The notes under the pieces are model-generated. The model was not told the origin of the DNA. It searched no databases and saw nothing but the letters and a program-made list of their open reading frames with translations. Below are positions 6,818-63,579 of a DNA stretch of 64,000 bases, in pieces (position 1 is the stretch's first letter; each line of letters starts with the position of its first letter). The translations under genes were made by a program, and so were the position numbers. Source of the stretch: Takakia lepidozioides (Eukaryota; Plantae; Bryophyta); assembly GCA_030704615.1 (NCBI GenBank), contig CM060732.1, forward strand, positions 51,584,001-51,648,000, in the 5' to 3' direction.

Positions 6818-7029
6818 TGCCCATTCCGGCTATGGCAGTTACGACACACTTGTATAGATGTGGCTTGCCACAAAATTTGCAATAAAATGTTGCATTTCAT
6901 TGTTATGACGAGTCCACTGGTGCCAAATTCCAACTTCATATGACCCTATTTCCGTGCCTCCTAACCCTATTTCCGTGGACACACAATGGTCCGCTCATGT
7001 TTTTTTTTTTCCGCTCATGCTCATGCTGC

Positions 7030-11700: not shown

Positions 11701-11769
11701 CTTGTGTCATGACCTATGGAGGATTTGATTGATCATGAACCAAGAGGACCTCTTGTGTGTGCTGCTTGT

Positions 11770-14656: not shown

Positions 14657-14998
14657 AGTCTGACTGCAACACCTGCAGCTGCTTTGCAAGCCCATACCCC
14701 ACTCAACCCACAGACCCTATATCCTAAGACCAAAATGATTCCAAGAAAATCCTTTGCCCTCTAGGCGAAAGCCAAAGTGAAGGGGCAGTTCCAACAAAGG
14801 CTGGTGATTGTCAATCACGATAAAAATGGGGCAGAACACATGCAGGAGTACTTTCAATAATTGAGGGACTGAACAAGCTGTCACTTCAAGTAGGAAAATG
14901 CAGCAGCGATGTGGCTCCTTTCCGACCCCTTAACAGATGCTGAAACCCATGTGGGGCTTGAACCCACTGGCATGCCCAGCCAATTCAGGCTTGCATGT

Positions 14999-17900
14999 GG
15001 GTGAAATGTTAGGGCAAACTGCAAGTACTATGAACTATTGCTCGGACAGTCCATTGTACTTGTCCCCCTTTAGGTGGCATAATATGGATGCAATGGATGC
15101 AAATGGACCCGCGAGCAAATGGATGCAAATGCAAATGCATACACATACACAACCCCTTTGTACGCCTAATCGTCGTTTGAATCCAGTGCTGCAATTGCAG
15201 CCCTTACCCCATCTTCATCGTATTCCGGCAACTTATAAACCATATCATTCCCTGCAACCCTGTGATCAGCTGGAACCATAGGAAACTTGATGGCTCGTAC
15301 ATGTTCCGAGTGCATATAGACCACCTGCGAATTCCTGAGAAGGACATAAGTGTCCTCCCCTGTCCCCCACTTTTGGTAGTATTTTCCAGCGACAACATGT
15401 CTCCTTGTACAAACTCTGTGCCCCATGCATCAGTGAATGGGTTCTTCACTGCATGAAGAGCAGCAACACAACAAATGACATAAAAGTCAACACCCTCATC
15501 GTTCTCTTCCTCTGCATTTATGGCAAAATTGTCTCCTATGTCAATGAGGGAGGCAAGGTAATCACCATTGACTCCAAATTGATCCCAATCCTCGTCAGCC
15601 ACTTCTTGTATGGCATGCCGCACTGCAGCAGTGTTTTTAGGGATCAAAGTTTCCAGCTCCCACTGTCCAGTCCAAGCTGCATTCACGCAGTTTCTCCACT
15701 GTGAATCAAGGCAAAAACAGCAAAAGCATGCCAAGTTTTTTTTCATCAGCTTGTTAGTATCTCCACTGGCAACAGAGCGTACCGAATGTAGTTTCTTTGA
15801 TCCCTTTACAGGATCACAATCATGTGCATTATGACGATTGACATCTCTTTCTTTCACATTCCAGAATACGCGGCACACATCTCGTTTCACCCGAGTATGA
15901 AGTCTCAGGCCTTGAAGACAGATGCTCTTTCAGAAACTGAACCACATCTTCTGCATTTTGCAGCTTTGGACCTTGCGCATCTAGTTGATGGTAGCGAAGG
16001 AATCTTTTGATAACTGCACCAGCCCCATCGTGAGGGCCCTTGCCATGCCCTGTACCAAAGAAGCTCCAAAGCAACACACACCCTCCTGTGAGAAAAGGGT
16101 ATCTACTGACAAAATACCACGGCACCTTGCTCTTGAATTGGGCAGAGCACCCATCACTCCATATCCAGTGTTGCGTAGGGCGAAACAATGTAGTGGTCAC
16201 ATGTTCCCAATGTAGCATCATGCAAAATAATTGTCATGTACTTTGTCGTCGGAAATAAAAAAATGGTACTCCATCAAACTGTCAGAGGCAGGGTCAAGTA
16301 CATCTTGTTGGGGATTTTGACGCCAAGATATTAGAACCAAAATAGTGACTTGGTATGAATGCCAGTGCATGCTTTGCACTTCATTCTGGACTTCAAAACT
16401 ATAATTTGCAGAAAAGTCCACAACTGAAACCAATACTCAGCTGGAAAATTCTTCAAGCATTCCTTGAATTGTTTGTCTTGCCATTGAACCACGAAATTGT
16501 GACGAATGAAAAACTGGAGTTTAGGCTTCAAATACCATACTAACTCATGAGGTGGTGTCCGCTTGCACATGGAGAGTCAGTTTCTTTCTCTCTTGTCCCT
16601 TCTTCGTAACGATTGTTTGCAAATCGAAGTGCTTCCACTCCACAATATGTTGTGAGGAACCATCCTCCTCGATTGGACAAAGAGGGAGATTATCAGCACC
16701 ACACATTAGACACTCTCCATACATACACTCTCTCTCTTGTGCCATTCCGCATACTCCTCCTTAGGGCACACCACGGACTCCCACATAAGAGTAAGTCTAT
16801 CAAAGGTGGTGAATGCACCCATGCAGCCATTCACACCATTCCATTGGCATACATCATCACAGTCACATTCACATTCAGCAATGAATACCCGACTTTGTTC
16901 GCATGTTATTGAAGCCCAACCGCAACTCCTCCATTTCCACATGGTAAATGCAACAGCATACATTTCTGTCTTTCATTCGTTTCACAAAAAAAGGTTTCAA
17001 TGCATCAAAGGAACGTTTCCCTATGATGGTAGTCGGGTTGGTTCTTTGAAATCGCAAATAAAAGTCCATCTACACAGGCAAAACAGTTATTAACAAAACA
17101 ACATGGTTGCAACTCCAAAAATTGACAATGAATAAAAAATACTCCAAATACAATCCAGAAACCTCCACAGCTGCAATTACTCCCTTATTTTCCACATACA
17201 TACCATGCCAATCACTATGAAGTCCATAGTTAGTCCATGGCAAGTCCATATGAAGATGTTGCATTCACAAACAACACATACACTCCATGAATACTCCACC
17301 AACAATCCAAGACATTCCAGAATTTGAACAATGAACTGCACCATGGATAGGCAGTCCCCATTTTTCAACATGACTAGGCACACACTACTACAAAGGTCCA
17401 AGTGTCTCCACAACAAATCACTATGAATGTCATCACTCCCATGTGAACCTGCTACATACCCAAAAACAGCAATGAGAACCTCCTATATTCCCCAAAATGA
17501 TAGAGAATTCCAGATTTCAAAGTAAGGGCAAAGTGAGGGATTGAATGCAAGGTACACACCTGAGGCTCCATGAGGTAGTGGGTAGGTTTTTCATCGTAAT
17601 GAAATGCTTTCAGGCGTTTTCTGGTGACATCCTTTCGATTAGGGCTAACTCGTGTTTGAGACACCCACCAGGAAACCACCAACGTTTTTGTTGCCTCTGA
17701 AAGAATGTCACATCTGGGCTTTCTTAAGAACAGAGTCCAGGGAATGTGAGCAGTTGAATCCACGAGTTTTTGCCGCTCCACAGCCAAAATGACGTTTCGA
17801 TGGTGGATACCAAGCACTTGAGCCTTAGATCGTAGGGAAGTTCCAGACCCGCCTCTCACAACAGCATTCAAAAGCGCATGCTTGCTGGCCAAAGTATCTG

Positions 17901-19344
17901 CTGATTTTGCCATTTTCAGCTCAGACAGGGACTTTATCAGTCCGTCTATGACCTCCTGTTGTGCTTCGACAATCTTAGGATCTTGAACATAAGCAGGAAA
18001 CAAAGTGGAGACTGACGGGTGTGAAAGGACCTTCTCCAAGACGAGCTTCTTGCTCGCAAGTCCAGGGAATATGCACAATGTTTTCGAAATGCACTCAGTA
18101 ATACAGTGTGCAGCCCTTCTCACTTCCCTTTCCAAGACAACTTCGTCCATATTGCCAGTACCCCTGCAATTGCTATGAATAGGGTTCGGCTGAACTGTTC
18201 CAGCTTGTTTGCGGGCCCTATAACGAGACTGAGTCAGTCGTTTCCGCTCATTGAAAGCACGAAGTCTTTCCACTTGCAAAGCGGCCTCCTTAGCTCTTTG
18301 TTTGGGCCCAGGCCGAGATGGTCCTCTCTGCTGAGGAGCCATTCTTCTACGCTTGAATCGTAAAACCTGCACATGTACCACTTGTCGAACATAAGGGCAT
18401 GCAGTAAGCAAGACAACCAGCAGACCTTGTATAGAATAAAATCACCTTCTCGAGGCCCATCAATACAATACCATGGAAGAGGTTCTAGAGGAAACTTAGG
18501 CTTTGGCTGGAAAGGTGCATATGAGGCATTTCCACATATGCTCAAATGTGTCATAGCAAAGAACAGAACTTCAAGTTCGACATCCTCAGCACTGAAGTAT
18601 TCTTCATCGTTATCAAGAATCCGCATCGCGATGATTAAATAAAACTCACCCAGAGTACACACTCAGGCTGTATACAACAGAGCGCACATGAGAACAGTAG
18701 AAGAGAGAGAGCTCGAAAGCACGCAAGTTTTGCAAAATTCAAAATCGCGTTTTCACATTATTATTTAAACAAAAATAAAACAAAAAATAAAAAACCGACA
18801 CGTCAGCTGGTATCGACCCAGAGTTTTCCAACGGATTAGTCCATGTAGCAACGGGCCATTGTACAACATCCTCTTTTACACCCTTTTAGTAAAAGGAACC
18901 ACCCCTAAAATAAAAAACACAATCCACCATGGACTTTTGCAAAAACCTCCATTTTTTGGACATATATTAGTCCATAGGTGTCAAATGGCAAATGATTTTG
19001 CCACTTCAAAGTTATATATATAAGTTCTCCAAAATGGCCCTCTTATGTCCAAATTTCAATGGAATTCATCAATGGCACATATACATTTTTTAGTTCATGT
19101 GTTTCCATCCGCTGTGGAAACAGTCCATCGTTGTTGTCCTCAAAAGTCCATAGTGTTCTCATTTTTTATCGGATTGTCAATTGGATAGTTGCCATAGGTA
19201 GATATTGAAGCTAGGAATCCAATGCCATATATATTTATTGGTATTAGTGATAATATTGAAAAAGTATTGAAGTGGCATCAATTGCAGTCACAAAAAACTG
19301 TGCCGGTAACGTCCATTTTGGTCCAGTCAACCCTGCATTCACCC
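14999..19344 (-). mobile_element. Sola2-like DDD DNA transposon, copy 1 (decayed)
   Basis: Transposase fragments 18662-15166 with VVDFSANYSFEVQNEVQSMHW, WSDGCSAQFKS, GTGHGKGPHDGAGA and a Cys-rich CCCIYH...CECDCDDVC region. Candidate imperfect TIRs gggtgaaatgttagggcaaactg (14999) and cagtcaaccctgcattcaccc (ends 19344). No matching TSD is seen, so the boundaries are approximate. Confidence 0.7.
15166..18662 (-). pseudogene. Intron-containing Sola-like transposase with multiple frameshifts
   Basis: Collinear ORF pieces 18234-18662, 17452-18411, 16875-17069, 16706-16963, 16545-16745, 16331-16570, 16218-16433, 15829-16221, 15204-15890 and 15166-15426, homologous to 36277-38405. Confidence 0.8.
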
Positions 19345-19819
19345 GACACTTGAATGGAAACGGTTCGGGCAGTCGGCGGAAGAGGGTATATGGAACTTCC
19401 AAACGCAAACTGGAACATGGTACATGACTATATTACTAGAGTGTCGGTTCTGTTATCAATTCTGGACATTTTTTCAGATGCAGGCAACAAAAAAGAAATG
19501 ACGTTTTACATTCAAATGTGTGCGTTTGCATCCTTAATGATTATGTGATCCCCTTGTTCAACCTTTTTTGGTAAAAAAACTTTCAACTCCATAACATGTT
19601 TCCTGTGGAAGCTGGTAACACCTAGCTTCCACAAATGTTGTACTCCAGCTGTTGATTGATGTACGCGGATGGTGATCATCACCATGAATAAATCAACACT
19701 TTGCCCCAATAAGACTTTCCGCGAATTTGGTGCTCCAGCAGTTTGAAGATGTACACAGATGGTGACTATCACGGGAAGCTTCATTGCAGGGGAGAATGAA
19801 TCACCAAACAGCTGAAGTA

Positions 19820-22045
19820 TTGGATTGCAGGGTGTGTTAGTCCCAAAAATATACCATGGGAGAAGACTTTGATAGATATCTTCAGATGTTTGAGGTCATT
19901 TCTAGTGTCAATGGAGTGCCTGAGAATTTCAAGATGATGATCTTTAGGATGAGCATGAAGGGACCGGCTCGTGATTTACTGATCCCAGCCTCAACTGGGC
20001 AACTCTGGTGGAATGGGCAAAGACCTTGTTCAAACCTCCTGAGAGTCCTTTGGATTGCTTTACCAAGTTTTCTGCCAGGACTTACCAACCTGGGGAATCC
20101 TTGTGGAAGTATTACATGGATCTTAAATTTGCTGCTGTTGAAAATATCATAGACCCGGCGGAGAGGGATTGTATGGTTAAAAGGTATTTTCTCCTTGGGT
20201 TGCCTTCCAATGTTCAGAATTGGGCTCAGCGACATCATTTTGTCAATGACAAGACTATGTTAGCAGAAATTAATCTTAAAATGACAGACTTGGCTGACAG
20301 CAATTCAATGCAACATCATGCCAAGTTTCAAGCTCCAATGGGCTCAGAGCTTGGCATGTCTGCAACATCCTCACCCTATGTTCCTCCTGCTATGACATAC
20401 AAAGTTGATGATTTTACTCTTCAGGGATTGGCTAATACTATGGGAAGTCTTAGTGAGTCTGTGGCCACTCAGTTTGCTGCCATGCAGGCTCATCAACAGA
20501 GGTAGCAGCCTCGACATGGCCAAGGACCAACAGGTGGTAACAATAGAGGTCGAACCCAGACTGTACAAGCCTATGAGGGTAATTGTGCTACCTGTTACAT
20601 TTGTGGGTCATTTGAACACTAGACGAAGCATTGTCCAGACAGAGCAGGGCTACCAGAGCTGATCAAGAACAAGAAGACAGCTAGTGGCTCATCCCCTCTT
20701 TTAAACTAGAGAGATCTCTTAGGAAGGGGGCAAGAGGTCCATCATCTACCAACCCTACTTCTTTTGTTCCGATTCAAGCTGTTTTATCTACTAACTTTAA
20801 AGCTTTGCATTGTCCTCTCAGTAGACAAACTGCTGGCCAGCAGATCAGTCCCCTCATGGCCCAATGCCATATCCACAAGCTCGGCTTTCCCTGTGTGGTT
20901 GATACTGGATGCACTATATCTGATATACCTTTAAGTGTTGTAAGAGTTCTTGGTCTTAAACTATGCCCTGCCACAAGTATTGAGGTGCTTATTGCAGATG
21001 TATCTAGGTATGAGCCCTTAGGACTAGTCATTGTTCCCATCAGAATTCATAAAAAGGAGGTTGTGGTGACCTGCATAGTCACCATTGGAGATCAATTCAT
21101 TATAGGCCTTGACTAGATGACTGGAGCCGGTGCCACCATCAGCTTAGCAGACTACTCCCTTCGCTTTAACAATGGAGAAGGGCATGAAGTAGTGGTTCCC
21201 TTGAAAGCAGTGAAGATCAAGGTTGGGTCTGCTACAGCCAATTTGTCCAGAGTCCAAGCCCTGGTAAAGGAGGTACAGCAGAACTCTCACTCCAACCTCA
21301 ATTGGAATGATTTCTACGAGTTTCAGCCTGATCTTCAACTCTTATATCAGTGGCATGTTCCTGGTGCTAGGGATAGGACAGGGGTACCCATAGCTATTCC
21401 AAAGAATTCTACTCTAATTCGTGCACCTCTCAACATCACCATCCCTGCCTTGATCCAGAAGGTGGTCAAGTCTAGTCTGGCCTTCTTGTGTCCAGGTGCT
21501 CATTTCCTAGAAGTTGAAGGATGGAGGAGACTGACTACCCTTAAGCATTGTCTGGTGGCACTGGTGTTCTAGATAGAGGATATAGGCAAGGAGTCAAGAT
21601 TCTGATTGCTAATCCCAAGCGCTTCCCTGTGACTATTAAAAAGGGGCAGGTTCTGGCTCGCATCACTGTTCTACCCATTGCTGAAATACAAGAGGTGCAA
21701 GCTGGCTTTGGACTTGAAGCCATTGACATCCAACATGGCCCCTTAGATGAGGTTGTTGTTTTTGCTGCAGTTGCACCACCACCTCTCCCTGATCTCAGCC
21801 TAGAAGGTAAGACGGCCCTCACCAAAGTTTTATCTGAAATCAAGTTGGGCACAACTCTCTCCTCAAGACAAAGGAGGAAAGTAAAAATGCTAATTGCAAA
21901 AAATCTAGATGTTTTCAGTTTGGGATCCACTGATTTATGGCACACTCCAATTCTTCAACATGACATTGTCACTGAAGCGGCTTCTATTAAACAATTTGCT
22001 TACCGAGAGAGTGTCAAGGAACGTGTTGTTATCCAAGAAGAAGTC
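19820..22045 (+). mobile_element. Ty3/Gypsy element A, 5' piece: gag, Zn knuckle, protease, dUTPase-like domain, start of RT
   Basis: Gag EDFDRYLQMFE...; CYICGSFEH*TKHC knuckle (~20593); protease VVDTGC; dUTPase-like GVLDRGYRQGVKILIANP...IKKGQVLARI; pre-RT region IKQFAYRESVKERVVIQEEV, cut at 22045. Confidence 0.85.
20700..20760 (+). promoter_or_regulatory. Putative -1 ribosomal frameshift site at the gag-pol junction of element A
   Basis: TTTAAAC heptamer (20700-20706) followed by TAG, then a stem gatctctt...aagaggtc enclosing a purine-rich loop that could pair with the downstream ccctactt. Confidence 0.55.
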
Positions 22046-22393
22046 TGTCGTGCGCATACGTATCGCTACACAACTACATCGCTGTCCAAACCACACCACA
22101 CATATATGCACAATAAAGTAGTCTACCACAATCGCCCCCCTAGCTGGTGGATAGGTCCCTCTGCCTCCAGATAGCTACAAGATGTAATAGCCACAGCCGT
22201 ACTAAGTCCTCTATCACTGTCCCTATGGCACTCAAACTCTATAGACCAAGAGGCCGGGTACAAGAATAGCCCCATCGTTAGTCGCCGTCTTGCAATCTGT
22301 GAACCTGAGCCAGGATCTCGTGTGTTCAAGGTCTCCTAGTAGCTGGGCCTTGCGTTGCTTGTTAGCCTTCCATGGTTGTATCCACTCCCACTA

Positions 22394-22535
22394 TCCAATG
22401 CAATGTGGACATAACCAATCCCCATCTGGAATCATCTCAAGAGGTGGAGTCAAGCATCCCATATGCCAACCTCTAGAGCATCGATCGCACACCAGCATGG
22501 TGGCTGCCCCTTTAGCAGATCCACACAACATGCAC
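22394..22535 (-). CDS. PHD finger at the integrase C-terminus of element B
   Basis: CMLCGSAKGAATMLVCDRCSRGWHMGCLTPPLEMIPDGDWLCPHC is a complete C4HC3 pattern. Confidence 0.9.
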
Positions 22536-25500
22536 CTCAAACCTGCAGATACCACTGCCAAGTTTGGGTCAATCCTGCCATCGACATTCGGAAGGTGACA
22601 TGGCGCACAATTACGCACATGGTCCTTCCAAGTTATGCCATCCCGACCCTCCAAGACCAAGACGCCTGAGGGCAAGACCTCTCGAACCCTCAAAATAACA
22701 CGTCCTGCAGTCACATCCAGGGTCGTAGGAGCAGTCTGCTGCAGATAGACATAGTCACCAGGGTTGAATCTCCGAACCCCAGGACAATAGCCCCCACCAC
22801 GTATGGTAGCATACCTCAACGTATCACGGTGTTGTGCAATGGCAAGGTTCTCGAAAGCCATGGGCATGACTCTCTTGAACAACTCTGCACGCTGCTCACA
22901 TGCACGTGCCCAAACGTCCGGATCGTCAAGGTTAAGAACTGTAGCAGCTTCTCTGCCAATGGATGTAGGCAAATCCGGCTCTCGGCCAAAGAGAAGAAAG
23001 TATGGTGAGAAGGAGGCAAGTGATGCTTGCTTGCTGAACCTGTAGCGCATGGCTAACCAGGGTAACTGAAGGTCCCAATCTCCTAGGTGTCCCTTCTGCA
23101 AGCCATACTTGCGCAAACCCCTCTTTACTGTCTGAACAACTCTCTCTGCCAAGCCATCGGCCTCAGGATGATCCCGAGAAGTGGTGCGGTGGTCTATCAA
23201 GGCCTTGTCACACAAAGCCTGAAACTCCTCCAAGAACTCTCTTCCTTGGTCCGTGAGTACCTCAGCTGGAGCACCGAATCGGCTAAGCACACAATCCAGG
23301 AATGCATACGCAGCTCCCTCACTAGCCTTATCAGGCAATGGAACCAATTCAATCCACTTGGAGAAGTGCTCCACCATCACCAACACGTACTTGTTGTGGC
23401 GCATGGTCAGTGGCAACGACCCTGCGAAGTCAAGACTCCACCTGTAGCCCAATCCCATGATTGGAAGAGGGTGCAATTGTGGAGTAGGGGCGTTGAATGA
23501 AGCACGCACCTTGTCACACACCATGCACCTAGCCACAAATTGTTGCACCTCTGTGTGCATACCACGCCACCAATACTGCCCCTGCAGTAGACTATGAGTG
23601 CGTCGCACCCCAAAATGCCCCAACTCCTCATGGGCATGCCGCACTAACCGTGCCCGCTGTGTTGGGTGAGGCACAATCCTCACTCGACCATCCTCCCACA
23701 CTTGGAGCAGGTGTGTCCCCTCCCACTTGAACCTCTTGGCTCGTTGTAGGATCCGATCCCTCTCTTTGGCAGTCACAGTGGCTGCCGTGTCTCCAGTGCG
23801 GAGGTAGTCCAACACAGCTGAATCCTCATGTATATCTTTGGTGCCACCTTGCTCATTGTTGGCCTCAGGGTCCTCAGACACTTGATCTATAGTCATCCCT
23901 ATTGCAGGTCCAACCTGACCTTCCGCTGCCAAGATACACAGAAAATGCAGATGCATGTCATCAAGGCACCATCTCCTCGTCCGTCTCACCATGCCACCGA
24001 GCTCTAGTGTCATCCTGCTGACTCGTGCATAGATTGCGATTCAACCCATCTGCATCACGATTGACCAAACCCGGTCGATGCACAACTTGAAAGTCATACT
24101 GTTGAAGGATGAGTGCCCACCATGCAAACTTCCCCGTAAGCTTGTCCGACTCCATCAACCACTTGAGTGGTTGGTGATCCGTGACAAGGGTGAAGAGATT
24201 GCCGTATAGATAGCACCTGAAGTGTGCCACGGCCCACACTGCAGCTAAGCATTCTCCCTCATATGAGCTATACTTAGCCTCTGCAGCGTTGTTCGAGCGA
24301 CTGACATAAGCCACTACGAACTCTCTTCCCTCATCATCCACCTGTGTGAGCACCGCTCCAAGCCCCAACATGCTCCAATCTGTATGCAGCTGAAAAGGAC
24401 GCCCCCTGATAGGTCGTCTCAAGATGGGCGCCGAGGTCAACCTCGCCTTGAGCTCTTGGAAACTCGTTCTTGCTTCCCACTGCCACTCTTGGTCCACCTT
24501 GGTCAGCTTGGTTAGAGCCTTTGCAATGGCACTAAATCCCTTGACAAACCGTCTATAATAGTTTGCCAACCCCATGGAAGCTCGAACTCGGCTCACATCC
24601 GTGGGGCATGGAATCTGTGCAATGGACTCTACCTTAGTTCGCTGTACCCCCAATCCTCCAGGATATATCATGTGACGCAGATACTCAATTTGGTTGTGGA
24701 AAAACTTGCACTTCCCCGGATGCAACTTCAATCCGTGCGCCCTCAAGCGCTCAAATATCACCTGAAGGTGTCTCTCACGCTCCTCCACCGTAGCACTAAA
24801 GATGATGATGTCATCTATGTAGCACTGAGCAAACTCCACCCCTGCTACAATCCTGTCCATGACTCTCTGAAACTCTGTCGGAGCGTTCTTAAGCCCAAAT
24901 GGTAAAAACAGCCACTGGTATAGGCAATCCTTCCCGTGCTCATTGATCCCCCAGAATGTCGTCTTCTACTTATCCGCCTCCTTGATCGGCAACTGGTGAT
25001 ATCCGGATCGTAAATCCGAAGTGTTAAAGACCTTGGCATGCCCAATGGCATCAAAGATCTCCTCTGGTGTCGTGGCATACCTATCGGACTTGGTCTGACG
25101 ATTTACAGGCCGGTAATCACTGCACATACGTCTCTCCGTCCAATTGTCATAGACATCCTTCTTGGCTGGCATCACTGTGGCTGAAGCATACTCTCCCCCA
25201 GATAGCTCCACCAAACCAGCCTCCCAAAGGTCCTGAGTTCTCATCTGAATCAAGGACCTCTCCATGTCACTGTATCTATAGGGTCTCCGAAAGATTGGCG
25301 TGTCAGTAGTCAGTTCAATGCGAATCTCTTGACCCTTCAGTGCTCCTAAGTCCTTCAAACTGAAAGCAAAGTAGTTCTTGTAAGCCCTCAAGGACCGCCG
25401 TATACGTCGTCTTTCTCCTCCGGTGACTATAGGTCCAATATCAGGCTCCCAGTTGTCCTCCGTGACTTCAACCTTGAGTCCAGCAGGCTTAGAGGTAGAA

Positions 25501-25819
25501 GACGCGTTCCGTGGTTGCTATGCTGTAACCTCTTGAGCAGTGACCACTGCCTCCTCTGTCAGTGACAATGTCTCATCCTGCCCCATCATCCCATCCTTGA
25601 GGACCTCCTCAACCCGAGAAAAATCCCTAACCTGATCCATCACTGCCGCCGTGGCTGCCAACTCCTTCTGAATCTCGAGCACCTCCCACGTGTGCCATAG
25701 ATGCGGCCTGCACCTCGTGGTCCTCACCTGTTTGCCCCCACTCGCTGCCTGTACCGTCTTGGTAGGCAAAGAGACTATCAAGGGAATTGTACTGCATATT
25801 CTGCGCTGCTCAGCCATAG

Positions 25820-26770
25820 CCAAATTGATAATCCATGTCAAGCAATTGAGATCCATGGCTTGTCCCAACACCTGACGACGTGATGCCTCATAAAGAGATG
25901 GCACCACCGTGGTACCAGTGGTAAACCCATTGCCCGCTCGCGCTCGTCAGCATTGGGCTCCACTAACTGCTGCAATTGGCTATCCCACAAGAGGCCAGGT
26001 CCACCATCCTGGAAAGCATGAGATCATGGAAAGCTGAGCAGTGTAGGCAATGCTGCTCGTGGGTGACCCACCTTATTGACCATTGCCAAAGGTGATTGGT
26101 CATCATGTCTCACACGCTGAGACTACCTCCCTATGTCCAAAATGCTATCCACAGTCAGGTTTGGTGGCCGCTGCACCCCATCAAATGCACGCTTGAGCAA
26201 TGCAGGTAGCATCAAGTTGGTCCACCATAGTCGTGGGCGATGAGCCCGTGACCCCACTGCAGCTCCATCCAGCAACACTACTGACCCAAGCCAAGACCGC
26301 ACTTGATGTACATTGGCCATCGCCTTGGCCCGAGAATCACCCATCAATGGCACATTCTCCAAGATATATGCCGGAGAGTCTGTCTGCTGAAGTTGTAAAT
26401 AGCGCAGGACCCTCAATATCTCCCAAAACAGGCGTGACCTTGAGTCTTGTAACCCATTGCCATACCCAGCTGATGAAAGCCCTTGGCAGGGCCAACCTGC
26501 CACTACTAAGTGAATAGGGCCAACCCGCTCCAAATCATGCGCCCCCAGCAAGGAGATGTCTGCTGGCAAGGCTTGTTGGAATCCACGAACTGCAGACACT
26601 GGCAATAAATCAGGGTACTGCTACACCAACTGAGCAACATGGCGCAATGAGACGCGTCGTGCAGTCTCATCCCTCTCCACATATAGGTAACATCGAACTC
26701 GTATACCTGCCTACAGCACTACAGCCAATCCAGTGCTAATTCCGCCAAACAAGTCCAGAAGGCATATGCC
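25820..26770 (-). pseudogene. C5-cytosine DNA methyltransferase domain within the Gypsy polyprotein
   Basis: Motif I LLDLFGGI, II YVERD, IV VVAGWPCQGLS, V SRLF, VI YILENV, VIII AHRPRLWW, IX EPNADERERAMG and X RQVLGQAMDL. Interrupted by TAG stops (26711, ~26621, 26123) and frameshifts. Confidence 0.9.
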
Positions 26771-29700
26771 TCCATCCGGGCACTGCCACACAAGAGGTGT
26801 TGTGTCCAATGGCGAGGTGGTCATGGTGCAATCACCGCACTCTCCTCCTCTCCTGACGGTACAAAGGCCTTTACCCATGCTTGTTGCAACCATCTATCAG
26901 CAGCATGCTGCAAATCCTTGCTCGTACCCCACAATGGAATGTGAGCAACCATGGCAGGCAACTCCGCCGTACCATGTATGTCATCCTGCTCTGCTGGAGG
27001 TGGCACATCCTCTGCATGGGCATTGCCCTCCAGTAACTCTCTAGGCCAACTAACTGCAGCTGTGAAGGCTGCTAGTGTTGGCATTTTGCCCCGTTGGACA
27101 GCAGCAACATCCCCAATGAACGTCACAGGGAGCTGTACACGACGACCATCCCCTGACTGCCATCCAGGCCTGTAGGATGCTGACTCCTCCCAAAAATCCA
27201 GGGTGAAGCCCATGGGATACAACACTGCCCCACCAACGAGGATATCGTAAGAGACTGCGTCTATCACAATAGCCTTGGCTCGCATCACTGAGCCATCTAT
27301 AGGATGATCCAGCTGTAGTCTAATGGCCAACACACGCCGTGTCATGCCCCGAGCCTGCTCTGATCCTCCCAGAGATGTCTGTATCTGGAGGGGACAAGGC
27401 TCCATATTCGCCTCCATGAGGCCCAAACCTGCAATAGCGGTTTTGCCCAACATCAGTGGCTGAGCTCCCGAGTCCAACAAGACCCACAGTGGCCGGTACC
27501 TCTTGTCTGCCGGTCCACTCAAAGAGAAAATATCATCCTGGTTATCTAACAAGACAACTCCAGGTGTCACCATGGCGCGCTCAAAGGCTGGCCTAGCTGG
27601 CAGCTCCGTCAACCTGGCAGCTGCAGCTTGCCATGGCGTAGCCGTGGCAGTCTTGACCCTCAAATCCGAGGATCCCTCTGCCACTACACCTTCCACTAAC
27701 TCCGCAGAAGATGAAGTGACATCTCTACTCTCACAGAGTATTGCTGCTAGTCTGAACACTGCAGCTGATCTTACCCCCGGCGTCGCAATCATGGTTGCCA
27801 AGAACAGTGGGGCTTGATACACAGAGGTGGCTGCCCCCAACAACACACTGGATGCACTAGCCTTGGCAGCAGGTGTCAATGCTACACGTGTAGCTCTCCC
27901 CAATGGCACAATAACGGCCTCCGTATCTGTCGAGCGAGAACTAGGTGCCATGGATATCGTCGCCACTGTCTCCCCCAAGATGAATGATTGAGGCAACCTA
28001 GCCTGTCGGCTTGCCTCCCCACGCTGTGGATCTAGCTCCACCTCTGCACCTCGTGGCTCAGGAACTCGTGCTGCTCCTCGAGTGACAGCTGCAGCAGACT
28101 CCACCTGCACTAGTGGTAGTGCTGCCCCACACATAAATCCCATGTCTCCCATGTCTCCTCCATCAAGATGACGCTGCTGAGGAGGAACAGGAGGTGGACC
28201 CTTAGGTCTTGGAGTTGGTACCACCTGAGCTGTGGCCATGGCAGCAAGCTTTTGCTCTAGTTGCTGAAGCCGGTTGACCATGCCTTGGTCAACGCCCTGA
28301 CCTCCACGTCCTTGGCCATATTGTGCTTGCCCTCGTCCTGCACCTCGTGCTTGACCACCTTGTCCTCTCTGAGGTGCTCCACCTTGCCCTCGGCCACTAT
28401 TGTTCCCTTGGAACTGGCCTCGCCGCAACTCAGGGTGTAAGTCATAACACTGGGCATCTCCATGCCCATACTTGCCACAATGCCCACATTGTAACTGTGC
28501 AGGATGTGCTTGTGCCAGCCCTTTGTCACTTTCTAGGCAATCTTTCTTAACATGGGGTCGTCCATATGTCCAACATACCACCCCTGGTTGCTGTTGGCCT
28601 GCAAAAGAAGCTACTGGCCTCTGCACCTGAGATCCCCTGTAAGCTCCATGGAATTTGGGTTGGGCAACCTTGCCCCCCTGACCACGCTGTTGGGCAGTCC
28701 CTTGTACCTGTTGGCTGGCAGCTACGCCTCGTGCAGGCATGTCCTTGCCAAATCCAATGGTAACAACTCGCTCCTCCACCATGTTGAGCTCAATCCGCTC
28801 AGCCAGCAGAAACACATCTGCTAATGTGAGTTGGGGCGCTTGTAACAGGGTTGCATCCCGCACCCTTCTCCTGAGCTCTTTGTCCAAAATTCCATACCAG
28901 AACTGGACTGCCTGAGCTTCAGTAACCCCTTGGGTCACACTTATCAAGCGCCTCATACGAGCGTAGGCCTCTCACAAGCTCTCACTAGATTTGCGCTGGA
29001 AGTCTTGCAAACTTCGCAGCTTCTCTATCCGTACACCTTGGTAGTTCCTCCGCAACTCCTGGAAGAACTCCACCACCGGATTGAATCTAGGCACATGTGT
29101 TGTCGTGGCAGGAGGAGTAGTAGCACCTTTTGAACTGGTACCACCTGCAGAAGTACCGGCACTACTTGTTCCACTACTAGTGTTGGCAGTGGGAGATATT
29201 GGTGCTGATGCATCTACTGGTCGCGTCGTGCCTCGAGTAATGGAGACGTAGTCAGGTGACCAATACATCCTCCACTCCTCAATCTCTGCTTCATGTCCTC
29301 GCCTGAACTCGTGGTAATAGTCCATAGGCGAGCCTTCCAAATGCTGGAACAGTCCCTTCCACGCCATGAATGGGGTGAACAGCTGTGGATTGCGCATCTG
29401 CTGCAAATCACACCAGCTGTCGAACTTCTGGATAAAGTCATCCAGCTTGATTGTGCCCACAGCTCCAGAGTACCTACGAGGCCCCTTAGTAGCTCCATAC
29501 ATCTCCTCCACGTCGTCCCACAATAATGGCGAAGAAAACTGCACACCTGTTGATGAAGCCACCGGGTCTGTGTCAAACTCTACAGTAGTTGAGGGTGGAG
29601 GTGAAGGTGGTTTGAACCGAATACCTCGTCTTGTGAACCCACTCTCACTGCGACTGCCTGTAGCCGTACTCCCCTCAAAACCCTTGGGTAACTCTGTGAT

Positions 29701-31074
29701 GACACTCACAACGTGCACCTCCCCTACGGGACACTATAAGGCTCTAATACTAATTCTAATAGTGACACGGGTGGGCACCTGTTGCAGTTTAAGGGTCATA
29801 TCCCAGTGGCTCAGGGCACCTGCACCTCTATCCACCGCAAGAACTCATATGGTTGGCTGGTCATCAACCCAGTCTCACCATAGAAGAAACACTAGTGGTC
29901 TTGCTGGTCATCACTCCAGCCTCACCACCGACAACATACTCTAGGATTGACCGGTGATCAAATCCGGCCTAATCCCTATGAAAGCAAGCGCCCACATAAA
30001 ACCAACATGGCGCACAGTCAAGCATGCATGCGTTGGAGGGGATCCAAACACAAGAAATCAAAACATCAACACCCCCACACCAAAATCCATCTGCAGTGCT
30101 GATCCTGCAGAATATCCCAGCCCAAAACCCCGGACTGACTGGCCTCCACCAAGAGAGGCTTTGGCAACTACAAGTACAAAGTAATGGAAATGGTAAAAAG
30201 AGGGAGGGGAAGAATAGAGGCCCGACCAAGCAAGATCTAATCCTGATCTATGCTATCAACTGCCAGACTTCTCTCAAAGTGCCTCGCTCTGCATGATGGT
30301 AAGGTGTAAGAGGTATATCTATGTCCAGAAACCTGCCACTGACCTTGTCCCAAGCTACAGTAGCTCGCTCTAACCAACCCTCCTCCTCTTTCTACCAGGT
30401 AGAGACAAAGCAATACTCCCCTATCTCCCGCTCACTGAACACTAAAGAAAATAAAGGTAGGGTCTGACAGTCTCTCAACTCGAAAGCTTTGAGACGGTTG
30501 CGGGTGTCCTCATTGCGAATGACTGGATCTCCTTCAAGTAGAACAAACTTTTCGTTGCTAATGAACCCCGCTCGTGGTTGCCCCGTGTAGCAAGGCAAGG
30601 ATGTATGCTTGATTTGTGCAGAGACATGGATAGCTGAAGGAGCAGGGATATAGTGTAGGTCTAGACTCAGGTGTTTCCGCCTTGGCAAGTTGCTCAGTGA
30701 CCTTCCCTGATAGCTTTGGAGTATAGTGAGTGTCTCACAATGCAATGTTGGTTGGTGCATCTTATGCGAGAACTTGGAAAACAAACAAATGTCGTTTTTC
30801 GGAGCTTTAGGCTGAACCTTTGTGCTGGGCTGCATTGTGCAGCCTGGCCTCTGCCTCAAACTCAAACTCAGACTCAGATCTTTGATCTCAGACTCAGACT
30901 CTTTGATGTCAGACTGAAGTGTATTTGGGCAATGAAGCACTTATGTAATTTTGAATTATCGTTGCATCTGCTCATTCTATCTGTTGTTCTGGCCATGCTT
31001 AGTCAGTTCTTCATGTCATGAGCAGGTTGTTGTCGTGATGCTTTGGAATTATGTTTAGGTGTCTTTAGATCGTG

Positions 31075-31633
31075 ATACTGACCACAAGCAACCTACGGTG
31101 AACTGTGGTATCCTCCACATTTATGTGGAATGTCCTACAACGTAAGCCGTAGTATATTTCACACCCGCTATGGTCTTCTCCACAGTTATGTGGAATGACC
31201 TACAGTATAGGCAGTAAAATACTCCACACCCACACCAAGAGTTGCTCCAAAATATGCCACGTGTTGCCTTGACAAAAATACACGTGGTGCCCATACCGTT
31301 GCCCAGATGTCGTCAAGCCATGGTGACAGGCTGTCGCATAATTTTCCCATAGGTGTGGACAAGTCCACACTCTTTGTACGTCTAGAATCCACGTGGCGGT
31401 GTTCGCCAAAGCACACATCGCCCGTGGAAAAAACCATTCACCCCGTGAAAAAAGCCACCTGTAGATTTAGCCACCCGTGGACTTTTCCACAGGGCCACCC
31501 GAGAGCCAGGCCGTCCACGGGGTGTCCGAAAGCACTAGTCGTTTCTTACACCCACGACAGGTGTGGATTGCGGCTGATTCCACAGCAAAAAGTGTGGAAA
31601 AAACCGTGGAAAAAACCGGTTTATCTTCTAGTG
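31075..31633. mobile_element. CACTA-like terminal fragment with subterminal repeats
   Basis: Dense ccgtgg/ccacgg/gtggaa motifs ending in ...cttctagtg at 31633 (CACTAG on the minus strand). The other terminus was not found. Confidence 0.5.
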
Positions 31634-33623
31634 AGAGCGTGTCCTGCTGCAACCATGTCTGATTGCACAAACTTGTGTAGCTCCTGCTCCTCTACTCTAG
31701 TACACCACGGCCTTGTGGTTGAACACCTTGGTCCCCGAGGCTGTCTTTTGCTGTGTTCCAAGCCTAGCTTCCACCCACTTTGGTATTTCACCTACAGCTA
31801 CAGAACTGCTTGCTCCAACAGAGTTCTGACTGTCCAAAGCAATATTGAGGCCCTCAACGCCCACTACTGCAGTTTGTTGTCTGTTGCTAATGCTTGACTC
31901 CCAGTATGCAATCAACTCGTCCAACTGCTCTCCACTCAAATCAGTCTGAGTTCCTTGAGAAACATAGATCTTGTCCCCTTGTGTGCACAGGCTAAGAGAA
32001 GAGACCTGCCCTTCAATTACGTCCTCATTTCCCCTAGCCATACAAAGAGGACGTCCACAAATTTGTCTCTCATGTAAACCACAACAGGTTCTAGAAACAG
32101 AATTGTGGATCTTTCATAGCACCCTCATACTCTCACTCACACTCAAAAAATTCCATAGAATTTTAGCAGAGTCCAAAAAACTAAATCCAAGGTCTAGATA
32201 GGTAGATTTCCCCTTTCTACAGCTATCCCCTCAAAAACTGTGTCAAACGGAGCTCATATGACAAAGATATGGCCAAAGAGGCTCTAAATCATTTAAATTA
32301 GATCATAGGGTTATTTATTTATTTATTTATTTATAAATTTAACACCAAAACGTTCTCACCATTAAAAACTGCTCCCAAGTCATCTACGAGTTCCCAACAC
32401 GTCCATGTAGTTCTCACAGATTCCCTGGATTTCACCTACAGGTGTTTCAAACATACACCGGTGAACTGCTCTGCTCCAGCCAAGATCTATAGCTATGCCG
32501 ACTCCGGGGCTTTGATCCTTCGCATCCACTCCATCTAGCACACCCTTCCATGCCACACTTGACGTGCACATGATTACAAAGAAATACCGTGAGGAACTCG
32601 GTTCCTCGAGCCTCCGATGAAGCCTGATCTTCACACCAACTTACTACCAGAAGGAAGGATCTCAGCAACAGAGAGAGGGCTGGGTGGCGAGAACCAAAAC
32701 CTCCACCTTCCTCCTCGATCCAAGGCCCATCAAATTGGCTGCATCGTGTCCCATTTTAGTTGCCCTCGATAGTAACTCGGCCCTGGCTGCTCAAAATTGA
32801 CTCATTCGCGTAGTAACTTTAGCTTGTCCATGTGATAGTGCTTCCAAGAACTATTTTGTTTTAAGGAATGGAGATCTCCACCTTCCAAACGCTACAATGG
32901 TTCGGCCTGGGGACGGAGAGAGCTGGGCACTGCTTGCCACCCTCTCTGCCTTTCTGCCTCCTTCAGCTTGACGGGCGACTCAGGTAGCATAGAGAGCGAA
33001 GCAAATTGACCCCAAAATGAGAGAGGTTGTGTGCCATTACAGGTCGTTGTCTTTGCGCCCACTCATGACGTACAACTGATGAAATTTAACAGCTGTCCTG
33101 AGCTCAGCTGAGAAGAGGTAGAGTCACCGCGAGTTCTTCAAAATTATTCTCCCACAGTTCATCAAGAGCTCATCCCAATCTCACATTCTTTCGGATGCCC
33201 TACAGACTTGCAGATTGATGCAACCCTGCACAAAACCTCCGCATGTCTACACCGTCTGCAATAACTACCTCTCTTTCGGAGCGCATGCGTACAAATCAGT
33301 GCGACTCCCTTAGTCTCTCAGTGAGAAAAGAAGAAGTCTTCACAGTCTCTGCTCGGCATCCGCCTTCCTTTGCCCACAAGGTATGAATGCTTCTTTCTGT
33401 TGTCTTCCAATGAGATACTTTGCGAGAGTTTAGTTTCTCCTTGCTTAAAGAGTAAGAAACGCAGCCCGCAGTTCACAAGCACTAAGCTCGCCACATAAGA
33501 CAGAATCAGTTTCAAGAAACATGGCATGAGAGATACAAGACACTGGTCTTCGATTCAAATGTCGGGGCACTGCTTTTTCTTTGCTCGAAAGAGCTCGAGT
33601 AGAGGAAGAAACGAGAACCCACT

Positions 33624-33900
33624 TTACCGCTGCTGGTGCTGGATTCCAATGAGCACCTTTAGCACGTCCTGCATGGAGGGGCGTCTATCAAGCACCTCGT
33701 GTGTGCAAAGCATGGCCACATCCATCAGCTGCAGCAGCTGCTTGTCAATACCTGTGGTCTTCAGCAGTTTCACATCAAGAACTTGCCTGGCCAGCTCTGG
33801 CTTCGCCAATGCTTGCCGCACCCACTGTGAGATGTTCACGCCCTCACTGACCAGAACGAAGGCTGCTTCCCCGCAATATAGCTCCGTCCTGCCCCGGCGG
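33624..33900 (-). pseudogene. Isolated C-terminal fragment of a receptor-like kinase domain
   Basis: VNISQWVRQAL...VLDVKL...LLQLMDVAMLCTHEVLDRRPSMQDVLKVL corresponds to RLK subdomains X-XI (C...RPSM..V). No upstream kinase subdomains are visible. Confidence 0.75.
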
Positions 33901-34147
33901 CCTCATGCCAGAACCAATGCTATCCTCAACCAGTGGAAAGACCAATTCTTTGCCCCTGCTTGAGATGCAGCCTGCCTCCATGGACCATCTCTATACCCAG
34001 AAACCAGAGATGATCGAAACCTGCATGTTTTTTTTTTTTTTTAAGCTTCTCAAACTAAGCACTACTTACGCACAGGTAATCATACAAGTGCTAACCCTCA
34101 ACTCCTACCTTGCACTCACAGGTAAGAGCTCATCTCTCTTGAGTGAT

Positions 34148-34498
34148 TGTAAGAACTAAACTCACATGTCTGATAACAAAGAAACATAAAACACAACACA
34201 ATCACTCGTTAAACTAAGAGTCGAGCCAGGGGCACCCCAAGCTATGGGGACTCCACCCCACAACATCCTATGCTCCCTTCATAAGCACACTCAGATTCTA
34301 AGCAGCGAAGGAGCTCGGTCGTGCAGGCTCAACACGAGAGAGATGAGCTGCACGACTGACGAGCTCGTGAAGATAAGATGGTTCAGGTGTCAAGCTAAAC
34401 TTGACACCTGACTTAACACTTGAACTAATTCCAAGTGTTAAATACAAATAACTAGATTTATTCTAGTTAGTTTCACAATGTGTTTATTTAACTTGACA
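34148..34498. mobile_element. LTR-like segment (TG...CA) forming the right end of the 12.45-kb insert
   Basis: Starts tgtaag and ends ttgaca, immediately before the AGTC duplication and the resumption of element A RT. Confidence 0.45.
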
Positions 34499-34502
34499 AG
34501 TC

Positions 34503-35565
34503 CAGAAAATGCTTGATGCTGGTGTGATTAAGCCTTCAGTTTCTCCTTGGGCCAGTCCAATTGTCCTGCTTGGTAAGAAAGATGGCACCACCCGCTTCTG
34601 TGTTGACTTCAGGAAGCTGAATGACATCACCAAAAAAGATGCATACCCACTACCCAGGATTAATGAGACCTCGGATCAATTGCATGGTGCTACAATTTTC
34701 TCCTCTCTTGATCTTGCGTCTGGCTTTTGGCAAGTTCTTCTTACTATAGTAGCCAAGGAAAAGACCTCCTTTGTGTGTTGCCTGGACAAATACCAATATG
34801 AGACCATGCCTTTTGGTTTGTGCAATGCCACCTCTACATTCCAACGCCTCATGGACATTGTCTTGGGCAATCTTCGCTGGGAGTGTGCTTTAATTTATGT
34901 CGATGATATCAATGTTTACTCAGCCAATTTTGATGCTCACTTAGCTGATTTGCAGCGTGTTTTCAGCAAATTGCACACTGCAGGTCTCAAAGTAAAGCCC
35001 AAGAAGTGTGAGTTGTTCATGCCTGAGCTGCACTTCCTTGGTCATATTTTGTCCAAAGATGGTTTGTTTCTTGATCCTGCCAAGCTTGAGTCTGTTTGGG
35101 GCTTTCCTATCCCCAGGGATAAACATTGCATCAAATCCTTCCTTGGTCTGGCTTCTTATTATAGGCGCTTCATAAAGAACTTTGTCAAGCTTACTCACCC
35201 TCTGACCAAGGTATTGTGTAAAGATGTCAGGTTTGAATGGACCTTCTCCCAACAGGCTGCTTTTGACACCCTTCGCAAGGCTTTGTGTTCAGCTCCCATC
35301 CTGACCCAACTTTGAGTTACCCTTCTTGCGTCAGACTAATGCATCAGATGTTGTCATATCTGCAATCTTATGTCAAGTTGTAGAAGGCAAGGAGCATGTA
35401 ATAGCTTATGCATCCCGTCGTCTAGATCGTCATGAAAGGAATTATTCCATATCTGATAAGGAGGGTCTAGCCCTGGTCTTTGGTGTGAAGCATTTCAGGC
35501 AATATTTACATGACAGCCAGTTTGTGGTAGAGACTGATCATCTTCCACTAAAGGCTCTTGTTAAG
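34503..35565 (+). mobile_element. Ty3/Gypsy element A, middle piece: RT and RNase H
   Basis: QKMLDAGVIKPSVSPWASP...DFRKLN...LDLASGFWQ...MPFGL...YVDD...; RNase H TNAS..., ETDHLPLKALVK. Continues in frame from QEEV at 22045. Confidence 0.92.
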
Positions 35566-36276
35566 GGGTCAAAGCATGCTACGGTCCACCCAAAATGGAC
35601 GTCCCAAGCTCTCTGCAAATGCAGTGCCACATAGAAGGACTGACATGGATGTTGGATATAAGTGCATTTTGAAAGCTTAGACATGAATCATTGATCCTTA
35701 TTCTGTGCTGAAAACAATGGTGGTTTTCTTTTTGGAATCCATGGAGATTTGAGCATTGAATGAAGTCCAAACGTAAAAGTATGTATGATGTCCAAAGTAA
35801 GGTTGTGGACTAAATGGAATCAATTGGAGTGGTGGAAAACTTCAATTCACATTGGGATTTTATTGTCCAGTAGGAAGGTCACCGTTATACGTGGAAACCA
35901 CAATGTAGCCCTAAGAATTAGTTTATGAGATATGTGAGAAATTTTCAAAATATATCATTTTATCTTGGAACATCCTAATTCATTAGACCTTCTTCCATTC
36001 ATTTTCATGCTATGGTCCTTTCATAAGAAGTGTAGCTTTCAAGACTCCCTAAGGCACTTTACAATGATATGGAGGTTTTTATGAAGGAATGAACTGCTTG
36101 ATGATTTTTCATGAAGAGAGTTACATTGGTGTATATTTTGGAAAATCTAGAAAATAATGTAACATTCACATAAGGGCAAAGGGGTTGCAGGAGACACTAA
36201 AGGTTGCTACGTATGCCATTTTGGTGAAAAAAACTAAGTCGTTCGAGCTACCTACCGTGAGATATGGACTGCGCGG

Positions 36277-44600: not shown

Positions 44601-44656
44601 TTTATGGACTGCAAGTTGCCGCTTTTGGATGGCCCATACCATGCTTCTTCCCTAAG

Positions 44657-46540: not shown

Positions 46541-46769
46541 TCTTCTTAGCTGATCTACTTCAGCTTGATCCACTTCTCTTCTCAACGGCTTAGTCTTAGT
46601 TTGCGGATGATGACTCTTGGGGTCCTAGGACTTGACCTCTCTAGGACTTAGAACATTCTAGTTTCATGGCATATCACCATCTGTACTCCCTGCACGGTTT
46701 TCGTAGCCAAGGGTTTTGTCCTCGGCCCAACTTGCAGGTGCCAGGTTTTCTCTTGCTAGGTTTTTCACC

Positions 46770-63290: not shown

Positions 63291-63579
63291 AATGTCAGGG
63301 CTGTTTGCACGTGGCTATCATTCTGTTCATCTATGTCGTCTTCCCCCATCCAACGGCCATGCACGTGTCTGTGAGATGAACGGAGTGGATGTATTGAAAT
63401 TTAGGATTTTCGGCTGCTCGCAGATTTGATCCTCTTTGCACGCGTGTATGCTGCACTTGCGCGTGTAGTTTGCTGCTATGTACTGTTTCTGCAGGACGCG
63501 TGTGGTCTGCGGATGTGTACTGTTCCTGCAGGGGTGCCGAGCATCATGACTAGATCTTCGAAGTTGCGCACGTCATTCC

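Follow-up and report, generated by a model that had tools for sequence, protein, structure and literature searches.

A decayed Ty3/Gypsy retrotransposon with a DNMT3-type methyltransferase, a PHD finger and a split long terminal repeat in Takakia lepidozioides

The element and its coding order

The window analyzed here, 64,000 nucleotides of contig CM060732.1 of Takakia lepidozioides (assembly GCA_030704615.1, positions 51,584,001 to 51,648,000), contains a Ty3/Gypsy retrotransposon with its own C5 cytosine methyltransferase (DNMT) and a PHD finger. The element lies on the minus strand between 22046 and 34498, starts with TGTC, ends with GACA and is flanked by a target-site duplication, AGTC, whose left copy (22042-22045) is identical to the right one (34499-34502). 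It is inserted in a second Gypsy element on the plus strand, which is interrupted at the start of its reverse transcriptase (RT) and whose frame resumes 12.4 kb further on. The left part of this outer Gypsy (19700-22045) holds gag, protease (PR) and a dUTPase-like domain, and the right part (34499-36000) carries on the interrupted frame with RT and RNase H (RH). Contigs of the outer Gypsy family bridge 22040 to 34498, skipping the inserted element, and at 22043 the contig depth in run X1 falls about 400-fold, from more than 600,000 to less than 1,900. The original prediction had placed the element at 22046 to 30300; the AGTC duplication and the outer-Gypsy contig joints extend it to 34498. Its insertion into another transposable element (TE), also proposed there, is borne out by the clean duplication and the continued outer frame, and at the element ends the contig is not chimeric.

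Six-frame translation and motif mapping gave the order gag, PR, DNMT, RT, RH, integrase (IN) and PHD on the minus strand, from about 29730 to 22394, in agreement with the order first read from the sequence. Above the curated cut-offs, Pfam returned DNA_methylase (E 1e-11), RVT_1, RT_RNaseH, Integrase_H2C2, rve and PHD (E 2e-10). Gag and protease gave no Pfam match and were assigned by motifs and by matches in relatives: gag (28400-29730) has two zinc-knuckle-like motifs (28462-28488 and 28552-28575), and the aspartic protease (27100-27600) shows LLDSGA (27463-27480) and ILVGG. They are followed by an unpermuted DNMT3-type methyltransferase (25850-26824), by a conserved TAG with CAA CCA behind it (25518-25526), where the Gag-PR-DNMT frame ends, and by RT (YIDD, 24804-24821) with RH (23961-25517). 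The integrase (22540-23940) presents an H2C2 zinc finger (23615-23638) and a D-D-E core (23420-23437, 23243-23257 and 23141-23155), and its C-terminus is formed by a C4HC3 PHD finger (22394-22537, PF00628). A polypurine tract (PPT) with a 2-nt spacer (22131-22142) precedes piece U (22046-22130), the 3' end of the element and the first 85 bp of its predicted long terminal repeat (LTR); moss-like loci (see below) have the identical tract in front of their U. Piece V (34144-34498) forms the 5' end, and a candidate self-priming primer-binding site (PBS, 34127-34143) lies behind it.

Regarding its class, the element has the PR-RT-RH-IN order, a Gypsy-type RT, whose best structure match was Ty3 Pol (E 6e-46), and a DDE integrase, together with TG...CA termini, a 4-bp duplication, a PPT and a candidate PBS. 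What it lacks of a Ty3/Gypsy element is two full direct LTRs at the ends: it has only one LTR, whose two pieces are V at the 5' end and U at the 3' end. The LTR search suggested by the original prediction found no LTR pair in the window copy by repeat finding and self-BLAST, so that this copy cannot be dated by its LTRs. No chromodomain match was obtained with Pfam at the integrase C-terminus; an intact PHD finger stands there instead, in the place that the chromodomain has in chromoviruses, as had been noticed from the sequence. A DIRS/PAT tyrosine-recombinase retrotransposon is ruled out by the DDE integrase and the 4-bp duplications, and no tyrosine recombinase was seen in the element.

In-frame stops in gag (28974), RT (24968) and, four times, DNMT mark this copy as dead, together with frameshifts near 26820, 25920 and 23940, where the contigs of other copies differ by small indels and lack these frameshifts. 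The family to which this decayed member belongs is a Ty3/Gypsy family of high copy number.

The methyltransferase, its family and the host

All the C5 methyltransferase motifs named in the original prediction were found at their place on the minus strand: LDLFGG (26741-26758), GWPCQ (26483-26497), ENV (26351-26368), HRPRLWW (26222-26242), ERERAMG (25925-25945) and LGQAMD (25851-25868; predicted as LGQAM). Motifs I, IV, VI, VIII and X thus occur in order, as expected of a C5 methyltransferase, and a DNMT fold was predicted for the DNMT of a stop-free relative, L006 (predicted local distance difference test score 92.8; template-modeling score 0.80 against DNMT3A, over the target), which matches DNMT3A/B. 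The nearest solved structures to the window DNMT were DNMT3A/B/C (E 1e-11 to 5e-9), and DRM2 and M.HhaI came a long way behind them. Host DNMT3 of non-seed plants (PpDNMT3a/b) has the same unpermuted DNMT3-type catalytic domain (PMC6453930; published work is cited throughout for the accessible part of each source), but the host genes have DUF3444 and introns, unlike the window DNMT, and no DUF3444 match was obtained in the window element. Partial, weak matches (27-58%) of the DNMT to phage or virus methyltransferases were also seen.

A DNMT search among longer proteins gave 57 matches: 17 from Marchantia (51-73% identity), two each from Calypogeia and Sphagnum, one each from Klebsormidium (KFL_009030040, 44%), Cymbomonas and Monoraphidium, the rest being environmental; no vascular plant was named among the 57. 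The suggestion that the lineage occurs in embryophytes is confirmed by the Marchantia, Calypogeia and Sphagnum proteins. A wider search returned 349 representatives at E 1e-10 or better, and 200 of these proteins showed two layouts, PR-DNMT-RT, as in the window, and RT-RH-DNMT-IN-PHD (17 complete), with two chlorophyte proteins presenting RT-RH-DNMT. The second layout is found in P0040, P0041, P0070, L064, L065, L070-L074 and L076, with relatives in Cymbomonas and Monoraphidium; DNMT hence stands at two different places in related elements, at least two of which (L070 and L074) share a palindrome behind the PPT. Metagenome loci were also collected, 80 of the 103 confirmed ones being taken, and most of the 80 show the domain order of the window. 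We call loci moss-like when their RT and DNMT group with bryophyte proteins, a label that does not establish their host. In a second organism (X9), a single 5,009-bp contig spans 22124-27069 with 324 differences (around 93.5% identity).

The RT and DNMT trees with algal elements that had been proposed were built with FastTree from 50 RT and 59 DNMT rows, picked by length and layout, without host DNMT3 or reference clades. The window grouped with Marchantia and moss-like copies in both (support 0.995 and 0.999), and the trees roughly part the two layouts. In the RT tree, the Klebsormidium row is long and lies nearer the chlorophyte-type group. Marchantia and moss-like copies are separated by short RT branches (0.05-0.11 each), a possible hint of horizontal transfer among bryophytes. 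For the window and the moss-like copies, a recent horizontal transfer was considered and is not supported, the synonymous sites being at or near saturation.

The closest described element is KnitGypsy-Dnmt3 of Klebsormidium nitens, a Gypsy with a DNMT3-type domain (de Mendoza et al. 2018, PMC5890265). The window element likewise has such a domain in its Gypsy polyprotein region, and KFL_009030040 shares its PR-DNMT-RT-RH-IN order, with identities of 44% in DNMT, 40% in RT and 58% in IN. By these homologies, the window element almost certainly belongs to the KnitGypsy-Dnmt3 lineage. The window family differs from KnitGypsy-Dnmt3 in living in a land plant, in its high copy number and in the conserved stop before RT. 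The accessible text on KnitGypsy-Dnmt3 makes no mention of a PHD finger, though a Klebsormidium IN-PHD protein exists, and it proposes no palindrome, self-priming or integration mechanism (PMC5890265). SymbioDIRS-Dnmt3, DAM-LTRs and EpiLTRs are also retroelements with their own DNA methyltransferase (PMC5890265; bioRxiv 10.64898/2026.05.21.726589). Unlike the window family, they are built on tyrosine recombinase or chromovirus backbones, and the EpiLTR enzyme, a relative of DNMT4, is combined with DAM and a chromodomain, in contrast to a DNMT3 with a PHD finger (bioRxiv 10.64898/2026.05.21.726589).

As a test of the host by PUR phylogeny had been proposed, we analyzed the intact five-exon PUR-alpha gene at 49446-51827, which is 80% identical to that of Sphagnum. 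In a tree of 27 rows, with no named liverwort, hornwort, lycophyte or fern, the window fell outside the seed plants, the sampled mosses (86/86) and the sampled charophytes (96/98), in an open fork. This points to a plant outside the seed plants and, as far as the charophytes are sampled, speaks against an algal host. PPR repeats, a GABA-transaminase-like gene (read by eye) and a receptor-kinase fragment in the window fit a land plant. Judged from these genes, the host is likely a non-seed embryophyte. One could argue that the DNMT is a one-off insertion, or that the contig is chimeric or algal. To this we give hardly any weight: the same order recurs in dozens of loci, in the X9 contig and in named bryophyte proteomes, so that other copies do not lack the DNMT; the duplication in the outer Gypsy is clean; and the intron-bearing PUR-alpha and the other land-plant genes of the window tell against it as well.

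The catalytic motifs are kept in a large part of the 57 DNMT matches (G-x-PCQ in 43, ENV/A in 39), many of which are partial or decayed. The ratio of nonsynonymous to synonymous substitution rates between lineages was 0.11-0.16 in the three of six pairs for which the synonymous rate could be estimated, the other three being saturated, and indicates that the DNMT is under purifying selection. Against this stand the ratios between close moss-like copies, 0.57-0.86, as for dead copies. Contig depth, which we take as a sign of an abundant family and not as a copy number, is alike in DNMT and gag bins in run X1 (428,000-491,000 versus 491,000-660,000, with 287-529 in low-depth bins), and in run X5 it is 513-737 in the DNMT bins versus 3-4 in low-depth bins. 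According to motifs, order and matches, the DNMT is a DNMT3-type, family-wide component.

The PHD finger (C4HC3 residues at 22400-22534, within the integrase C-terminal region) has its nearest solved relatives in the fingers of CHD4, PHF12, KDM5, ATXR5, PHF21A, DPF3 and UHRF1. It lacks the aromatic cage for H3K4me3, including the cage tryptophan: the cage position is Gly in 98 of 111 relatives and Trp in one, and Asp follows the third Cys in 104 of the 111. By sequence, the absence of the cage and the acidic residue are those of an H3K4me0-type reader, and we take the two together as signs of unmodified-H3-tail reading, which makes it somewhat probable that the finger reads unmodified H3. The unmodified H3 tail is also what animal DNMT3 reads through its ADD domain. 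Of the 115 matches to the integrase tail, 80 showed the PHD pattern, among them proteins from Marchantia, Calypogeia, Sphagnum, Klebsormidium and Haematococcus. By these matches the finger is not a land-plant novelty, since it occurs in Klebsormidium and chlorophyte relatives too.

We found no report of a Gypsy-DNMT3 element in a land plant in the literature searched, which did not cover subscription journals, figures, Repbase and bioRxiv supplements. In their accessible parts, PMC12344493 and bioRxiv 10.64898/2026.05.21.726589 cite a 'streptophyte' Gypsy-DNMT3 without naming land plants, and PMC6317226, PMC10952607, PMC11244446, PMC6453930, PMC5408684 and bioRxiv 10.1101/2022.06.16.496473 describe none from land plants.

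A conserved stop, split ends and a self-complementary primer site

The stop between DNMT and RT in the window (TAG, 25518-25520) is followed by CAA CCA, a CARYYA context, which promotes readthrough in plant viruses (PMC4132726). An in-frame stop occurs at one shared position in 33 of the 36 loci that cover this interval. Once these were merged into 30 distinct copies, 27 carried the stop, one had it 6-9 nt off and two were deleted or shifted, and CAA came after the stop in 26 of the 27. Five proteins (three from Marchantia, one from Calypogeia and one environmental) end 88-94 residues past motif X, a distance of 110 codons in the window. The predicted place of the DNMT between PR and RT hence stands, while it is not simply inside Pol, from which the conserved stop separates it. 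DNMT and RT do not share the single open reading frame (ORF) expected of KnitGypsy-Dnmt3; the stop is in frame, and readthrough would rejoin them. Tj1 has a comparable stop between gag and pol (PMC4600332; PMC6317226).

From this arrangement, RT-IN-PHD would probably be made by readthrough, and the DNMT at Gag level together with Gag-PR. Several observations weigh against readthrough: the full CARYYA hexamer is found only in the window and L002 (1 of 27 moss-like copies), most copies having CAA CCC; the stop is TAA rather than TAG in 11 of the 27; and the annotated Klebsormidium protein reads across without a stop. Reinitiation at the ATG behind the stop was rejected, as that ATG is missing in the window and L002. 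The 'writer plus reader pair' of the original prediction, DNMT and PHD, lies on different translation products, parted by a conserved stop.

Neither end of the insert is a copy of the other. In host contigs, the ends at 34498 and 22046 are joined with two additional bases between them, giving the palindrome GACA-GC-TGTC, with piece U finishing in its left half and piece V opening with its right half. At 22045-22046, piece V follows in 33 contigs of X1 and dissimilar flanks (agreement 0.37) follow in 35, and in at least 12 contigs the end of V is attached to U at its PPT-side start. One contig that presumably stems from RNA covers 22052-22310 and was left out of the evidence. All 15 distinct left ends in moss-like loci begin at V (14 with TGTC, one with TGAC). 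As for the 10 distinct right ends, six stop at the end of U, two continue as U-GC-V, one is rearranged and one is undetermined. L012 is a complete V-coding-U-GC-V-U copy, and L005 also shows U-GC-V, broken off by the end of its contig. Matching 4-bp duplications were present in all five moss-like loci with both ends and in the window, that is, in 6 of 6 copies, and the central GC of the palindrome is missing from the inserted ends. Copies therefore begin and end at an internal palindrome, with the LTR split. The LTR set by PPT and PBS is U-GC-V, yet the copies end in its middle, from which it follows that insertion uses the middle of the LTR.

The identical 10-bp palindrome was found 64 bp behind the PPT in L074, a distant algal-type element, and L070 has CGTCA-GC-TGACG, with the same CA-GC-TG core, 201 bp behind its PPT. 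The V-U joints vary, with one extra base in L012, a PBS remnant in L015/L016 and two bases in L070; the right end of L015/L016 is a rearranged copy whose joint retains part of the PBS, like imprecisely end-joined cDNA.

The ends, the loss of GC and the duplication are observed, and from them we infer that the integrase cuts the internal palindrome, which we hold to be very likely. Such internal cutting would explain the repeats of KnitGypsy-Dnmt3, which were reported as DIRS-like A-coding-B-A-B (PMC5890265), the layout of the long form of L012. In our data this layout is met with in the family (L012 and host contigs), the window copy having the short A-coding-B form. HIV-1 integrase cleaves the palindromic 2-LTR junction (PMC1905944; PMC4372172), and the likeness to HIV-1 and foamy-virus integrase at 2-LTR circles lies in a DDE integrase acting, restriction-like, on a palindrome of two attachment sites (PMC1905944, PMC4372172, PMC1180852), with the cut being inferred in the window family. 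In those viruses the palindrome is formed by cDNA end joining, in a side route, whereas here it is encoded inside the LTR and sets the ends of every copy examined. A Gypsy with an internal palindrome was not found in the literature searched, which left out Repbase, most subscription journals, figures and bioRxiv supplements.

Two points count against the internal cut. A palindrome behind a PPT-like tract was seen in only 2 of 10 B-type or control loci, the others being incomplete or having none, and a symmetric cut of a 2-LTR circle also predicts V-U-V-coding-U copies, found in none of the 15 left ends, though short-read collapse of a 450-bp repeat could hide them. Split ends could also form with no internal cut, if copies recombined or suffered deletions after ordinary integration, or if a template jump of the DIRS/PAT kind during reverse transcription built A-coding-B-A-B and put the palindrome halves at the true ends of the cDNA. 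This layout is indeed that of tyrosine-recombinase retroelements (PMC5890265), the absence of V-U-V left ends suits a directional template mechanism, and U-U recombination could turn the long form into the short one. We find these routes improbable: the duplications abut TGTC and GACA in 6 of 6 copies and so rule out post-insertion deletion from ordinary copies, PPT and PBS mark ends other than those inserted, the V-U joints differ among copies as end joining predicts, and the integrase D-D-E is intact with no tyrosine recombinase seen.

For piece V of the window, PBS pairing sets the inner limit at 34144, and contig joints put it near 34171. The bases behind V pair exactly over 13 nt with a site inside V (34127-34143 with 34335-34349), compared with at most 10 nt among 2000 random 20-mers. 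In L012 the pairing between PBS and LTR extends over 16 nt, starting 28 nt behind a TATA box, and in L071 over 11 nt, so that complementarity is kept in the three although their sequences differ between lineages. Such complementarity is a signature of Tf1-type self-priming (PMC4600332), and points to Tf1-like self-priming as the likely mode. Only 7 of the 15 moss-like left ends, however, have an exact pairing of at least 9 nt at the expected register. Tf1, Tj1 and Tcn1 share a PBS complementary to the predicted 5' end of the RNA (PMC4600332; PMC6317226), and differ from the window family in their ordinary paired LTRs, a chromodomain instead of a PHD finger and no DNMT.

A proposed cycle and its significance

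Taken together, we favor, with a probability of about 0.6, a family of the KnitGypsy-Dnmt3 lineage that makes Gag-PR-DNMT before a leaky stop and RT-RH-IN-PHD behind it, and whose integrase cuts a palindrome inside the LTR. In such a cycle, the RNA would begin in piece V, and its 5' end would pair with the PBS and self-prime, as the complementarity suggests. Gag-PR-DNMT would be made in bulk and RT-RH-IN-PHD by readthrough, and reverse transcription would yield U-GC-V at both ends. The integrase would cut both strands of GACA^GCTGTC after CA, in a staggered way, so that a 3' end in CA and a 2-nt overhang remain, as in normal 3'-processing; GC would be lost on repair, with a 4-bp duplication at insertion. 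If both palindromes were cut, or a 1-LTR circle was used, the product would be the short V-coding-U form of the window, a dead end without terminal redundancy. If only the 5' palindrome of an end-joined copy was cut, it would be V-coding-U-V-U, able to replicate again. The packaged DNMT would then likely methylate the new cDNA, and the PHD finger would likely bind unmodified H3 tails and favor TE-rich chromatin. Against this cycle, it must be said that the one nested insertion in the window is insufficient to show a target preference.

The chances that the DNMT methylates its own cDNA are about even. With the same element and the same integration route, the enzyme could act elsewhere, on target-site chromatin, other TEs or the host genome, or be a DNA-binding module of low activity. 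In yeast, SymbioDIRS-Dnmt3 methylates CG, and the Klebsormidium DNMT gave no methylation, a result that counts against a methylating role and that its authors call inconclusive (PMC5890265). Expression at Gag level would permit action in trans, and the moss-like copies decay at CG (0.16) and CHG (0.19) more than at CHH (0.055), as host MET1/CMT would give, so that this decay does not demonstrate self-methylation. We regard this alternative as unlikely, since the catalytic motifs are kept under purifying selection and fusion behind Gag-PR would put the DNMT in the particle alongside the cDNA.

A broader and doubtful proposal is that, in a green-lineage Gypsy clade, the attachment site has moved into an LTR-internal palindrome and end-joined copies are productive. 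DNMT3 might there be the modification half of a restriction-modification-like pair, CAG/CTG and CG methylation in or beside the palindrome shielding master copies and host look-alike sites from the element's own integrase, or deciding which palindrome is cut.

The remainder of the element and window holds further features. A broken extra ORF upstream of gag (30230-30588 and 31634-32113, minus strand), in the high-depth part of the element, gave no Pfam match and no match among the 80 loci; it lies in a 5' region (30230-32113, minus strand) interrupted by a later 1,045-bp insertion at 30589-31633, which a contig joint (30588-31634) skips and whose first 81 bp recur, in inverted orientation, in a repeat at 10656-10736 and 11154-11226. 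A low-depth segment (32523-34025, minus strand, with bin limits as boundaries) includes a receptor-kinase C-terminal fragment (33627-33902; BAK1 match, E 5e-4), where other contigs show internal deletions, and may represent part of a host gene captured in a small subfamily. In the outer Gypsy, the dUTPase-like domain (PF00692, E 2e-5) sits between protease and RT, an arrangement more familiar in some retroviruses. Two related transposase-like ORF sets without a Pfam match, at 15200-18440 (minus) and 36238-38402 (plus), are likely DNA transposons. A tandem array at 11700-14760 is made of units of around 385 bp, each a PPR gene fragment. Other repeats are a 146-bp tandem repeat (3617-4500), a fragment of a long interspersed nuclear element endonuclease (7000-9200), another Gypsy integrase (44400-46600) and a C-rich degenerate repeat array (61900-63300).

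Methyltransferase cargo has been known in such elements since 2018; the land-plant range and the proposed integration route, neither found in the literature searched, would come as a surprise to specialists. The range of DNMT3-carrying retrotransposons is widened from one alga to liverworts, mosses and the host of the window, and their DNMT3 ORFs, present in high copy number, also confuse the counting of DNMT genes in bryophytes. The split ends suggest an integration route to which LTR-finding tools would be blind. If true, the productive form in this route is end-joined cDNA, usually called a dead end. With Marchantia, a tractable model, among the hosts, genetics and methylomics can be used to ask why a transposon should carry a silencing enzyme.

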